DNA of 64,000 bases from Eledone cirrhosa (lineage: Eukaryota). The DNA lies in NCBI GenBank assembly GCA_964016885.1, contig OZ024749.1:31062001-31126000 (forward strand), given 5' to 3'. Under the pieces are notes generated by a model that ran no database searches, was not told where the DNA came from, and saw nothing but the letters and a program-made list of their open reading frames with translations. The position numbers and the translations under genes were made by a program. Positions 14,623-51,098 of this stretch are shown piece after piece (position 1 is the stretch's first letter; the number at the start of each line of letters is the position of its first letter).

Positions 14623-14821
14623 AACGAAGGAAATGTGGTAAGGTACCAGATGAACCATAACGCAACAATATACTCAATATTTAGCGTAGTAGAGTGGGTA
14701 ATAGGAACAAGTAAGACCCCGACGGCAGAGCTCAAGCCGGTTCGACGGCTAATTCTGGACTGAGTCCAGAATTAGACGGTGAAACGGCTTGAGCTCTGCC
14801 GTCGGGGTCTTACTTGTTCCT
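14623..14821. mobile_element. Palindromic PLE-like family P1, copy b
   Basis: 78-bp tail plus arms of about 61 bp (14701-14761 / 14763-14823); flanked by (TA)n. Confidence 0.85.
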
Positions 14822-14887
14822 ATATATATATATATATATATATATATATATATATATATATATATATATATATTTATATATGTATAT

Positions 14888-15082
14888 AACAAAGAAAGTG
14901 TGGTAAGATACCAGGTGGACCATAACGCACCACAGTACTCGATAATAGTAGAGTGGGTAATAGGACAAGAGTCTGGACCACGACGCGTGAGCTCCGGCCG
15001 TTTCGAAAGCTAGATCCGAGTTCGGATCTAGCGGTCGAAACGGCCAGAGCTCCACCACCGTCGGGGTCCTGATTCTTTTCCT
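14888..15082. mobile_element. Palindromic family P1, copy c (distinct subfamily)
   Basis: Same tail and GAAACGGC..GTCGGGGTC motif; different centre GCTAGATCCGAGTTCGGATCTAGC. Confidence 0.8.
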
Positions 15083-15124
15083 ATATATATACATACATAC
15101 ATATATATATATATATATATATAT

Positions 15125-15312
15125 AACGAAGGAAATGTGGTAAGGAACCAGGTGGACCATAACGCACCAAAGTACTCAATACTTAGGGTAGTACAGTGGG
15201 TAATAGGAACGAGTAGGACCCCGACTGCTGAGCTCAAGCCGTTTCGACGGCTAATTCTGAATTAGCCGTCGAAACGGCTTGAGCTCAGCCCGTTGGGGTC
15301 CTACTCGTTCCT
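15125..15312. mobile_element. Palindromic family P1, copy d
   Basis: Tail plus inverted arms with the shortest centre AATTCTGAATT. Confidence 0.85.
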
Positions 15313-15371
15313 ATATATATATATATATATATATATATTATTATTATTATTATTATTATTATTATTATTAA

Positions 15372-45400: not shown

Positions 45401-48283
45401 TGCTCACACGTACGCCTCCATGTAGATATAAATAATAACAGAGTCTATATAAGTTTGGATGGGACCATCTATGTAAACTGTCATATCTGAGAAGTGTCGA
45501 TTAAGAGACCGGATCCAATCACATGATCAAACCCAATTTGATCGATACGGAAACAATCTGTAATATGTAATCAAGTTTACACAAAGCTGCAATTCTTGTT
45601 GTCACTTTATATAAATATATATATAATTATATAAATATATATATATATATATATATATATATAAATATATATATATATATATATATATATATATATATAT
45701 ATATATAATGATATAAATATGTATATATATATATATATAATTATATATATATATATATATATATATATAATTATATAAATATATATATATATAATTATAT
45801 AAATATATATATATATATATATATATATGATATGAATATATATATATATAATTATATAAATATATATTTATATATATATATATATATTTATATATATATA
45901 TATATAATTATATAAATATATATATATATATATGCATATTACATATAACAAGCACCACTTTGAAGGACTCAATAAATAAGTATGTATAGGCATTAATTTT
46001 CGTGAAGTGGGGATGTAAAACATTTCAATGATGGGGTGGATGATTACAGGTGAACACATGAATGTAATCAGAGATGTACAAAACACCTGAAAACCTGTTT
46101 CATCTAAACAGTTTACTTCAAAGGGAAACACTTAAAAAATGCCATCAAATTGATAACAATATAATCAATAGATACCCTTAATATATATATAATATAAATA
46201 AAATATATAAATATGTGTGTGTGTGTATAATATAGATAACATATAATATATATATATATATATACATATATATATACGTGTCATTGTACACATATATATA
46301 TGTATATGTGTCTGTGTGTATATATATATATATATATATATATATATAATTATATATATATATATAATTATATATATATATATATATATATATATATATA
46401 ATTATATATATATATATATAATTATATATATAATTATATATATATATATATATATATATATATAATATATATATATATATATATAATTATATATATATAT
46501 ATATATTATATATATATATATAATTATATATATATATATATATATATATATATATATATATATATATATATATATATATATATATATATATAATTATATA
46601 TATATATATATATATAATTATATATATATATATATATAATTATATATAATTATATATATATATAATTATATATATATATATATATATATATATATAATTA
46701 TATATAATTATATATATATATATATATATATAATATAATTATATATAATTATATATATATATATATATATATATATATATATATATATATATATATATAT
46801 ATTATATATATATATATATATTATATATATATATATATAATTATATATATATATATATATATATATATAATATATATATATATATATATATATATATATA
46901 TATATATAATTATATATATATATATAACTATATATATATATATATAATTATATATATATATATATATAATTATATATATATATATATATATATAATTATA
47001 TATATAATTATATATATATATATATATAATTATATATATATATATATATATATATTTACATATATATATACGTGTCATTGTACACATATATCTATGTATA
47101 TGTGTCTGTGTATATATATATATATATATATATATATATATATATATATATATATATATATATATATATATATATTATATATATATATATATATATATAT
47201 GGTGGTCGTGCTTGTTTTTATGTTAGTAAATGATTATATAAATGTAGCATTATGGCAAAAGAGAATGATTACAATTGTATGCGTGGCGAAATGCTTATCC
47301 CCTTTCCCATAACTATATAATATATATCTAATAGTGTAATTTGGAATGCATATCTTAAGGATACGAAATTTTAGTAGTATATTTCTTTAAACTCAGGTTA
47401 CAATCCATCACATTAAATCGATTTATATAGTCAACCAAACATATACAGGCACACAAACATGCACATACAAACACACACGCACGAACACACACTCGTGAAC
47501 ACACACATAGTTTATCTCAAAATTTACTTTGATGCTATCCCTTTTTGTAACTCTCTTATTACTAAGATACATTCTGACTAGCATATCTCCCGAAATAGCA
47601 GAATAAGAAAAATAGTAAAATAAAACTTGCTTCCATTGTTTCCCCTATTTAATCTTATCTATCTTTCTATTTCGTCTACTTTGTGCATTCTATGTTCCGA
47701 TAAAAGATTAGCGTCCGAAACGTTCAGACACTAGTCTTATATACATGGAGTGTTAAACTAATATTTATTATCATTTTAATGTATCAACTGTATCACACAA
47801 CTTTTTTTTTTATCCTCTTGGAAATTTTTGCACACACACATACACATATATATATATATATATATTTAACATGCACAAACATACAAGAATACTGACATAC
47901 ATATATACAAACATATATAGAAACATACATATACACATAGATACAAAAATACATACATGCATTCACGCATGCATAATACATAGGTACATACATAGATACA
48001 GACATACATACATATATATACATACATAGATACGATACATACATACTTACATACATATATACATGCATACATACACCTATATTTATTTAAAAAATAATAT
48101 TAAATCTTACATATCTTTTTAATCTTGATTTCAGTCTATTTTTTTTTTTGTACGTTGTGATAAAATTCAACCTTTTGCCTTTGCTACGAGCTTATACTCT
48201 TTAATTGTTTTTCTATATAATTTCTATCTTGTATTTTTCGATTGACTTACTAAACCACCTTAAATAACATTATTTCACCTACA

Positions 48284-48472
48284 TTGGTGGATTGGCAGTA
48301 TCGGTAGTGAGTCGGACGCCATGCTTTCCAGCATAGTTACGTCCCTTTACGATTTGAGTTCAAATTCCACCAAGGTTCACTTTGCCTTTCATCCTTACGG
48401 GGTCGATAAAATAAAGTACCAGTAATGTACTGGGTAATTGCTGGCCTTGTGCCAAAAGTAAAAACAATTATT
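48284..48472 (+). mobile_element. SINE family A, full length, with 15-bp TSD
   Basis: ATTATTTCACCTACA at 48269-48283 and 48467-48481. Confidence 0.93.
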
Positions 48473-49625
48473 TCACCTACAGCATTGTCTGTCTTCTCCC
48501 AGTCGTATATTTTGTATATCTGGCTTACTGATATGTTGCTTCTCTGAAGTATTGTGGCTTAGTGGTTATGGCGTTACTTATAGGATCCTAAAGGGGTCAG
48601 TTACTGTTCTTTATCAAATGCTTGTGTGCGTTGATGTTCTCTCTTTTTCATTCACTGCCTCCGTCTGTTACAATGATAAACAAACGGGAGCCTAGACGCT
48701 GGTCGACCCGCGGCCTCGGCAGACAGAATAGAGAAGGGGTTTCCCCGGAGTATGGTGAAGGAGACATGTTAGAAGAACTATTCTAGCTGGCGAGGTGTAC
48801 GCCTGCGGGTAGCCAACTCCAAGCCGATGGTGATCAGTAGGGTGGTGGTTCTAGGATAAATGACACCAGAGGTTTCCACAGCTACAGGTTTGACCGCAAG
48901 ACTCTCGGAGAGTGATGCTCAAGTCTTATGCTGGAATACCATTGGTACGTTTAATCTTTGAGCAAGATATTTTATTTGACGTTGGCATAGTCGACATTTC
49001 TTAAAAAATGAGATTTACCTGCATGTAAATTATCCAGCCTTCCCACACATTGTCTCAGGCACTAAGGTAGTTTGATATCGGCATCAGTTGCCTGAAGTTT
49101 TGTCTACTGATTTTTTGGTATTCAAACTCAAAACAGAAAACTGTGTAACCATAATACCTGCGTTGAGAAATCTCGACACAGAGAGAGAGAGAAATATATA
49201 TATATATATATTATATATATATATATATATATATAATATATATATATATATATATATATATATATATATATATATATATATATATATATATATATATATA
49301 TATATATATATATATATATATATATATATATATATATATATATATAAAACGGAGATGTAAGTTTCGTTTAAAGAAAATTAGTCTAATGCTGCTTGACAAT
49401 TGCTTTAAAATAAGTTTATCTAATTACTGTCAAAAACGTTCTCTACAAATGGTCGAGCAGGAGATATTGAAGAATAATTGATTATTTCCATTAGTTAGTG
49501 TGTGATTGGCCACATAAAGCTAGGTATGTAGATAAACAGGTAGGTAGGTAGGTAGGTAGGTAGGTAGGTATGTAAGTATGTAGGTAGATAGATAGATAGA
49601 TAGATAGATAGATAGATTGATAGAT

Positions 49626-49775
49626 TTTTTATTTGCCACAAGGGCGCACAAGAAAAGGGGACAATACAGAGACACGTGCCGGGAATTGTACATAGAGTCG
49701 TGTAAAAAAAAAACAAAAAAAAAACAATTATAACAATCGAAATCCCCAATAGGGGGGAGACGCCACAAATGGGTT
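49626..49775 (-). mobile_element. 3' end of a LINE-like family
   Basis: TTTATTTGCCACAAGGG..AGGGGACAATACA shared with 63719 onward; AATAAA on the minus strand followed by a simple-repeat tail. Confidence 0.5.
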
Positions 49776-50961
49776 GTTTAATCTAAAGTCTATCTAAAGT
49801 ATTACTTAAAGAAGGGTAAATAGATAGATAGATAGGTTGGTAGCTGGGAAATTAGGAAGATGGATACATAGCTACGTCTGCACGCCAGTATTTTGATATA
49901 TTTATGTGGACCTGAAATTACAAGGCCCCGCGATACAAAAACTCGTCCCCAAGTATATTTTTAATGCTTTCACACATAAATATATTGTTGGGTACATCAG
50001 AATATTTTATATGAATTCAATATATTTCTACTGAAAGCAGCAAATGTTCCCACCTCTGATTGAGGAAAACATTAGAAAGAACACAATTTCCTCAACTTAG
50101 AGATTTGGCAATTTTTTTTGACAAAATAAATATGTGACGTAAGAGGATCGAGTAAAACCGTTAAAGTGTGGGCAATTATTTGCATAATATCTTAAATTCA
50201 ATCACTGCGTTCGTTTGTAGGTGTGGAAGAAGCATATTCAATGAGGGAGAATGAGAGAGAAAGATAGAAGGATATATATACATGTATACATATGTAGAGA
50301 GAAATAGAGATACAGTGAGGTAGATATATATTATATATAGAGAGGGACATGGAATGCCTGAGAGCCTAAGGAGGTTATGTGAGAGAAATATTGTGATATA
50401 AATAAACAGTTTTATAGAAGCCGGATCTAGAATAATGACGTGATGTATTAGCATCCGATAAAGGCCTTATTATAATTTATCTCGACAAATCTCAAGTGAA
50501 TAATGCCCTATGTTACGTTTGTAGATCAGTAACCCGGCAAGTTATAAATGGCTGCTATTATAAATGGATGGAAGAGAGTGCATTATATTATATTAGATTA
50601 TATTTTCACGGCCTCCATTCACATTCATTTATCGCCCCCGAAGTCAATTACTCTTATTTGCTTTGAGAGAAGAGATTTATAAAATCATTATGACGTTTCG
50701 TCTTTAGTTTAAATGATTAGTTTTCCAACATAGGCTTTCAGCCTTTTCCTTGCCCATTGCTTTTCCGCATAGGGGGACAGTGTCAGTAAATGAATTAATA
50801 GTTATATATTTAAGTCAATACACTTCTGCCAATATGATTATTTGGTCTTATATATATATATATATATATATATATATATATATATATATATATATATATA
50901 TATATATATATATATATATATATATATATATATATATATATATATACAGAGAGAGGGAGAG

Positions 50962-51098
50962 AGAGTGGATAATAGGAAAATGTTTGACCCCGACAGCAGA
51001 GATCAAGTTGTTTACAATTTTATCGATTTTTTTTTTTTTAGTCCCGAATTAGCCGTCGAAACGGCTTGAGCTCTGCCGTCGAGGTCAAACATTTTCCT
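50962..51098. mobile_element. Palindromic family P1, copy h (third variant, short tail)
   Basis: GAATTAGCCGTCGAAACGGCTTGAGCTCTGCCGTCGAGGTC with inverted counterpart upstream. Confidence 0.75.

Follow-up and report, generated by a model that had tools for sequence, protein, structure and literature searches.

Penelope-like elements (PLEs) that carry a C-terminal GIY-YIG endonuclease (EN+) include the Hydra clade, for which a motif set and the targeting of (TA)n sequences have been described by authors who also ask for mechanistic work on the inverted repeats and tails of PLEs (Craig et al. 2021, PMC8557442). For a lizard PLE, PAc Poseidon, in vitro experiments revealed two internal start sites of the reverse transcriptase (RT), extension of both strands and a tail formed by the intervening sequence (Frangieh et al. 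2024, PMC11167929). A hammerhead variant with a U3-A8 pair is known from the Cercyon PLEs of Schistosoma (Cervera and de la Pena 2014, PMC4209133), and an internal promoter with an initiator has been described in the pseudo-long terminal repeat (pLTR) of Penelope (PMC2377424), an initiator-type pLTR promoter also appearing in PMC3846280. In L1/SVA, an extra 5' G is taken as a copied cap (PMC2912911). Here we analyse a 64,000-nt stretch of the genome of the octopus Eledone cirrhosa (contig OZ024749.1, positions 31,062,001 to 31,126,000; hereafter the window), in which short palindromes built from halves of a hammerhead motif lie in (TA)n. These palindromes are almost certainly the shortest insertions, here called stubs, of a PLE, and their ends suggest a mechanism in which both target strands would be primed at two sites of an RNA that probably begins, with its cap, within the ribozyme motif.

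Like the Hydra clade (PMC8557442), the octopus family encodes an RT followed by a GIY-YIG domain with the clade motifs, uses (TA)n as target and shows an inverted 5'-truncated copy and an optional tail. It differs from that clade (tail of 30-40 nt) in its tail of 80 nt, its unit of about 3.1 kb and its stubs, which outnumber the long copies, and from the Hydra ribozymes listed in File S2 of the same paper (CUGANGA core, short helix II) in its U3-A8 pair and a helix II of 56 nt. A U3-A8 core in PLE pLTRs, a palindromic loop 3 and nearby pairs on opposite strands are shared with Cercyon (PMC4209133), whose minimal motifs have almost no helix III, whereas the octopus family motif combines a helix III of 5-6 bp with a very long helix II. 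As in PAc Poseidon (PMC11167929), the start sites lie downstream of the hammerhead, both strands are used and there is no sign that cleaved RNA serves as template; unlike PAc Poseidon, the family belongs to another clade and its sites are located in the 5' untranslated region (UTR) upstream of the ATG.

Results

A sequence-only reading of the window had noted seven palindromic inserts of 140-240 bp in (TA)n and one tail-only piece, and all of them are present, with (TA)n on at least one side of each. Only about 110-160 bp of an insert are palindromic, however, since each stub consists of an inverted pair of approximately 60-bp arms and an unpaired 80-bp tail on one side (partial in the insert at 50962). 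Positions within arms and tails are given here relative to the G of GAAA (position 0), minus values lying upstream; according to BLAST, the arms of the window copies end 8-35 nt upstream of this G. As had been read from the letters, the arm corresponds to the 3' half of a type I hammerhead motif. The exact 32-nt arm pattern is found in only 3 of the 14 window arms, which differ by subfamily variants. The two arms of one copy carry common subfamily-diagnostic bases, their identity amounting to 65-95% with end overhangs included. Genome-wide (3.0 Gb, 1,796 contigs), the 32-nt pattern has 45,967 exact matches and its reversed control none, a number that is a lower bound given the recovery of 3 out of 14 arms in the window. 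A random 200 kb contained 6 pieces of the stub family, and TA runs flank 58 of 59 loci on both sides. Even in the youngest subfamily, for which a tail-side pattern has 3,785 matches, stubs form the large majority.

Extension of the longest window centre inward resulted in 561 matches, many of them arranged as facing pairs 0.1-6 kb apart and representing long elements. Two such loci, L113 and L173, display the order direct pLTR, arm, tail running into the 5' UTR, open reading frame (ORF) and a 3' UTR that ends in a tail-less arm at (TA)n. Locus L173 (G000:C1:11224000-11233900) contains an open frame of 719 amino acids for RT and GIY-YIG, with an inverted, tailed and 5'-truncated copy in front of it. 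Arm and tail of the window copy at 29944 are identical to the pLTR-5' UTR junction of this locus at 139 of 140 bases; in the parent, the tail sequence continues into the 5' UTR and the ATG follows at +213. Longer copies linked to a PLE RT/GIY-YIG ORF, a search for which had been proposed as a check, are present and include an intact element, and the suspected Penelope-like origin is supported.

The L173 protein contains the motifs RWR (37), DKT (117), YRDD, CNCPDRSIC (572; CxCx5C), a C-terminal YIG, CNLC (670; CxxC) and CKH (698; CxH), whereas GxK[FY] was looked for in this protein and is not present. Its homologues at E <= 1e-20 number 2,054, mostly of about 40% identity, and the best named match carries PF01541. 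A Pfam scan of three ORF fragments from other copies returned 0 families; the assignment of the ORF as Penelope-like is based on motifs and homologues. In line with an EN+ PLE, a single ORF combines RT and GIY-YIG, the pLTR is partially tandem, a 5'-truncated copy lies inverted and the tail occurs on either side. The RWK-like motif, DKT, the CxCX5C linker, CxxC and CxH flanking the endonuclease, the lack of GxKF/Y and the (TA)n preference are those of the Hydra clade. The canonical hammerhead, readily detected in that clade as in other PLEs, is a rarity in the octopus family (see below), and we therefore call the parent, whose clade is assigned from its motifs, a Hydra-type variant. Membership in Naiad was ruled out by the C-terminal position of the endonuclease, and a Helitron/HINE reading was abandoned after the RT parent had been found. 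A non-LTR (long terminal repeat) retrozyme, with head-to-tail units each bearing a whole hammerhead, was rejected as well, the stubs being head-to-head and without the 5' core.

The 5' half of the hammerhead that is missing from the stubs occurs in long copies, where the pattern ACCCC-N-TGA-NN-A, 45-75 nt, GAAACGGC has 5,812 matches versus 4 in the control. The cores of the first 100 matches listed are, by hand count, TTGANAA (74), CTGANAA (22), GTGAGAA (2) and TTGANGA (2). TTGANAA represents a U3-A8 core with all four bases seen at position 7, and CTGANAA a C3.A8 mismatch; the canonical C3-G8 core CUGANGA is found in 11 of the 5,812 motifs genome-wide. Long copies of the older subfamily to which the insert at 14888 belongs also possess a TTGATAA core and differ in the interior of helix II. 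That no stub holds CUGANGA had been recognized correctly, as none of the 12 CTGANGA..GAAA matches in the window lies inside a copy. The parent had been expected to read GACCCC-CTGANGA, however, and reads ACCCC-TTGANAA instead; because of this difference in the core, the absence of a CUGANGA half, which had been named as refuting the idea, would have misfired if taken literally. Likewise, a search for CTGANGA within 36 nt of the arm gave 62 heterogeneous matches and no parental ribozyme, the allowed spacing being insufficient and the core a different one.

The unconstrained minimum free energy structure predicted for L173:4790-4915 is a type I hammerhead fold, with a stability no better than that of shuffled sequences (z = -0.11). 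It comprises the three-way junction, the core boxes, the 3-8 pair, G10.1-C11.1, A15.1-U16.1 and an NUH site. Across 17 related copies, whose selection by motif already fixed part of helix I, pairing holds in 88.8% of the cells, with double changes at 4 pairs of helix II and none in helices I and III. Rfam gave no hammerhead match to the inserts among the 150 matches listed of 257 and none at the gathering score in four long loci; its microRNA matches on the inserts were dismissed as hairpin and microsatellite noise. The long copies bear a whole hammerhead motif with a variant core, a putative ribozyme. An arm start at the predicted GUC cut site (+23) is possible in about 10-11 of 100 listed short arms (hand count), which is no clear excess, and ends at the cut site were dropped as a proof of cleavage in vivo. 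This agrees with the unprocessed RNA used as template in vitro (PMC11167929). It had also been suggested that stub transcripts carry a cleavable half open to completion in trans. Both arms are predicted to pair as a 58-bp hairpin of about -128 kcal/mol (-128.4 kcal/mol, z = -18, for the copy at 29944), which would sequester the half-ribozyme and makes such completion unlikely.

The inserts are bounded by two fixed sites, A (+42) on one side and B (+122) on the other (loose ends L173:4909 and 4989), and the tail is the 80 nt between them. In a position-ordered sample of short palindromes, an A arm is combined with a B arm in 28 of 29 cases, the remaining one being unclear, and a tail on both sides was seen in 1 of 90 tail-selected copies. 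These 90 copies of the youngest subfamily were parsed from the first 100 listed among the 3,785 matches, with centres limited to 14-44 nt. They comprise 69 distinct centres, the commonest of which was seen 4 times, and each stub was thus likely built anew at insertion, as the sequence-only reading had supposed when it let the palindromes arise repeatedly; the symmetry axis, which it had placed at helix II, sits in the 3' strand of this helix. The junctions show an overlap of 0-2 nt (microhomology) in 58 copies and of 5 nt in 1, and filler, often copied from a nearby arm, in 31. The longer arm is surely the tail-less one in 30 of the 90 copies and the tailed one in 34. Among long insertions, L102, L103, L164 and L173 bear the tail on the short inverted copy, L101, L104 and L199 on the long one. 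A GACT-N-AGTC centre, matched 401 times, recurs across several subfamilies and faces either way with respect to the tail; by hand count of 100 listed, N is G in 50, C in 38, A in 5 and T in 7. Some tailed arms (L130, L131, L146, L160, L162, L167 and the window piece 4118-4176) end at about +62 to +79 at a small tail hairpin, a second preferred stop.

In the young subfamily, both arms stop within -12 to -22 despite their length difference of 80 nt, with 0 of 180 arms past -22 and a peak at -18 (33 arms). The base after an arm end at -18 is G in 24 of 33 cases, where the parent has T and a null of blunt joining gives 31% G. At junctions with at least 2 inserted bases, a G comes next in 9 of 10 arms that end at -18. 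Of the pyrimidine-A ends at these junctions (-13, -18 and -22, corresponding to L173:4854, 4849 and 4845; -13 and -22 were added post hoc), 15 of 17 are followed by G, as compared to 7 of 29 ends elsewhere (p = 4e-5). Arms reaching -19 or beyond co-occur (both arms in 6 of 90 copies, p = 4e-4), and 0 of 24 partners of arms with an end at -18 plus G pass -18, as expected if both arms copy the same RNA end. The pentamer TTAGT at -18, which we take to resemble an initiator consensus, is common to both subfamilies, although their sequences from -21 to -45 are unrelated. In the older subfamily, a test planned beforehand, the ends again pile up at -17/-18, about one quarter of them representing one blunt -18/-17 join.

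The copies in the window are compiled in Table 1.

Table 1. Stubs of the octopus PLE family in the window and the parts of the copy at 29944.
Feature	Position	Strand	Description
Tail-only stub	4118..4176	-	from RT start site B (~+122) to ~+62/+66; in (TA)n
Stub	14623..14822	-	tailed arm 14623-14761 (-), tail-less arm 14763-14822 (+), joined at -18/-18
Stub, second older subfamily (GGATCTAGC type)	14888..15083	-	tailed arm left, tail-less arm right
Stub	15125..15313	-	arm ends -14/-12
Stub with longer arms	29649..29886	+	ends -35/-32; ~9 bases inserted at centre; right-hand tail
Stub, youngest subfamily	29944..30142	+	centre -18/G/-18
3' half of hammerhead motif in copy 29944	30022..30048	+	GAAA, helix III with loop, GUC cleavage triplet, helix I 3' strand
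80-nt tail of copy 29944	30063..30142	+	spans insertion ends A (+42) to B (+122)
Stub	43927..44137	-	arms end near -22/-18; inserted bases
Stub, older and diverged	50962..51099	-	partial tail to ~+52; T-rich centre filler

Other PLE families are represented nearby. A separate (TA)n insert with inverted arms at 18300-18960 (-) contains a canonical CTGATGA hammerhead (18508-18579, -; Rfam HH9, 38.6 bits, under the gathering score of 52), to which a hairpin end at about 44183-44230 is related, and probably belongs to another PLE family. The fragment at 22235-22489 (-) is 29% identical over 85 amino acids (E 4e-10) to the GIY-YIG part of the parent protein and appears as a remnant of another PLE. 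Elsewhere, long ORFs of other PLE families adjoin family copies (L164:1-2097 (-), L208:4009-4878, L105:8042-9507), and in L031, L033, L034, L038 and L046 a single family arm directly abuts 3' sequences of other PLE families, with no (TA)n in between. The fusion partners carry GIY-YIG ORFs (29-43% identity) at L033 and L034, hammerhead motifs with a canonical core at L038 and L046, and a one-base variant at L031; these fusions, which come from a biased search, possibly reflect two RNAs in one insertion. Identical family members repeat at a spacing of about 44 kb and 70-75 kb (G000:C2:338339388-338471426; C2:164254353-164400075), which suggests large tandem segmental duplications. In L018:1460-1740 and L012:1470-1730, the flank past the right (TA)n is the inverted left flank (22 bp and 7 bp, respectively); a scripted search for duplicated flanks found 0 among 58 loci, yet overlooked a 22-bp case visible by eye.

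Discussion

We propose that the stubs arise by priming on both target strands from two sites of one RNA, the capped start of which would probably map within the ribozyme motif, and assign this whole model a probability of roughly 0.6. Hereby, the GIY-YIG domain would nick (TA)n on both strands, and the RT would start at A on one strand and at B on the opposite one, for which in vitro precedent exists in another PLE. Both cDNAs would then run off the mRNA 5' end at the initiator-like TTA(-18)GT or TCA(-22)TT, the cap would sometimes be copied to yield an extra G:C pair, and end joining would fuse the 3' ends of the two cDNAs. Read-through RNAs, with A and B far from their 5' end, would give rise to long insertions. 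Transcription would start inside helix II, which would account for the restriction of stubs to the 3' half of the hammerhead. Two primings, one per target strand, that are joined by end repair are the best fit and, by analogy with L1 twin priming, quite probable. As in that process (PMC2912911), cDNAs would derive from both target strands, with a microhomology join and an untemplated G; unlike L1, with its variable second-strand sites and non-overlapping RNA, the octopus starts are fixed and the same stretch is copied, which results in a palindrome.

That the stop is a capped RNA 5' end is favoured only slightly, and several observations weigh against it. The putative start site is deduced from DNA junctions, and from DNA alone a G:C insert fits cap copying or a preference of terminal transferase or repair. 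In the older subfamily, cap copying is compatible with only about 8 of the 16 junctions that gained bases (hand count), several arms extend to -26 to -30 and the boundary is softer; older copies in the window even reach -27 to -35. Moreover, the centre limit of 14-44 nt biases against two long arms and may inflate the co-occurrence test, the correlation between left and right ends is weak (rho 0.26, 90 copies), and 2 of 9 partners of arms with an end at -13 plus G pass -13. The second subfamily thus supports the boundary, and the extra G weakly.

A boundary of this kind could also be set by structure, if twin priming occurred on RNA holding the whole ribozyme and both cDNAs stalled at the distal helix II hairpin. 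In L173, this hairpin is predicted to span -14 to -35; a stop independent of cDNA length would follow as well, and structural stalls seem to happen, since arms primed at B sometimes end beside the tail hairpin (+70 to +79). The distal hairpin is weak and AU-rich, however, and arms enter it by up to 8 nt, whereas the stronger stems of helix III and proximal helix II are read through; the second subfamily differs in sequence there and its ends still pile up at -17/-18, and the extra G at -19 is left unexplained. We consider such stalling unlikely. Still less probable is a single priming followed by fold-back of the cDNA or by self-priming on an antisense template, with the tail trimmed at resolution. 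Self-priming has been proposed for head-to-head junctions of rotifer PLEs (PMC3846280), and both the diagnostic bases common to the arms of a copy and the partners of arms with -18 plus G, which never reach further, would suit it. Fold-back of one cDNA, as the sequence-only reading had it, predicts that the tailed arm always extends furthest; the numbers of longer tail-less and tailed arms rule out a simple fold-back of a tail-started cDNA. As the tail of long insertions resides on either copy and most centres have no hairpin loop, the idea survives only with symmetric later trimming.

Stubs might also be long inverted-repeat insertions that lost their middles via microhomology-mediated repair, given that inverted insertions of 0.1-6 kb exist and that microhomology and filler mark the junctions. 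Such deletion would leave both the constant limit of the arms (-12 to -22) and the additional G at -19 without a cause, and stubs prevail even in the youngest subfamily, which renders it very improbable. Amplification of a master palindrome as a unit, in the manner of a miniature inverted-repeat transposable element (MITE) or another non-autonomous element, initially seemed in line with 30 loci from the best DNA matches, which share one centre at about 99% identity. Those loci were selected by identity to the query, and unbiased sets give the diversity of centres described above; the shared centre is found in both orientations relative to the tail, the termini are asymmetric, with one arm set back by 80 bp, and the arm sequence runs on into an RT element. 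Any target-site duplication would be unreadable in (TA)n. Amplification of one master is hence refuted as the main route and retains next to no probability.

Implications

PLEs are already known from the literature to have tails, U3-A8 cores, inverted copies truncated at the 5' end and a preference for (TA)n targets. The rule of one A and one B end, a start site within the ribozyme and a cap signature in PLE junctions are not reported in the accessible text of the literature searched, outside of which lie most subscription papers and Repbase; the accessible portions of the PAc Poseidon paper (PMC11167929) give no account of inverted stubs, the pairing of A with B or a cap signature. Tentatively, and at slightly less than even odds, the promoter would fire inside its own hammerhead, the mRNA would start with a half-ribozyme unable to cleave, and a dimeric RT-endonuclease would copy one capped end together with its cap twice, from two fixed sites and onto opposite strands. 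If true, tens of thousands of stub junctions would constitute a fossil map of start sites and a record of how the inverted repeats and tails of Penelope elements originate. For the mechanism of PLEs, the octopus family supplies tens of thousands of minimal products together with at least one intact ORF, and its near-strict rule of one A plus one B end, the shared stop window and the extra G provide testable predictions for an in vitro system. Since the stubs resemble MITEs, and since searches with CUGANGA or Rfam miss a motif that has 5,812 matches with the relaxed pattern, catalogues of repeats and ribozymes would misfile the family.

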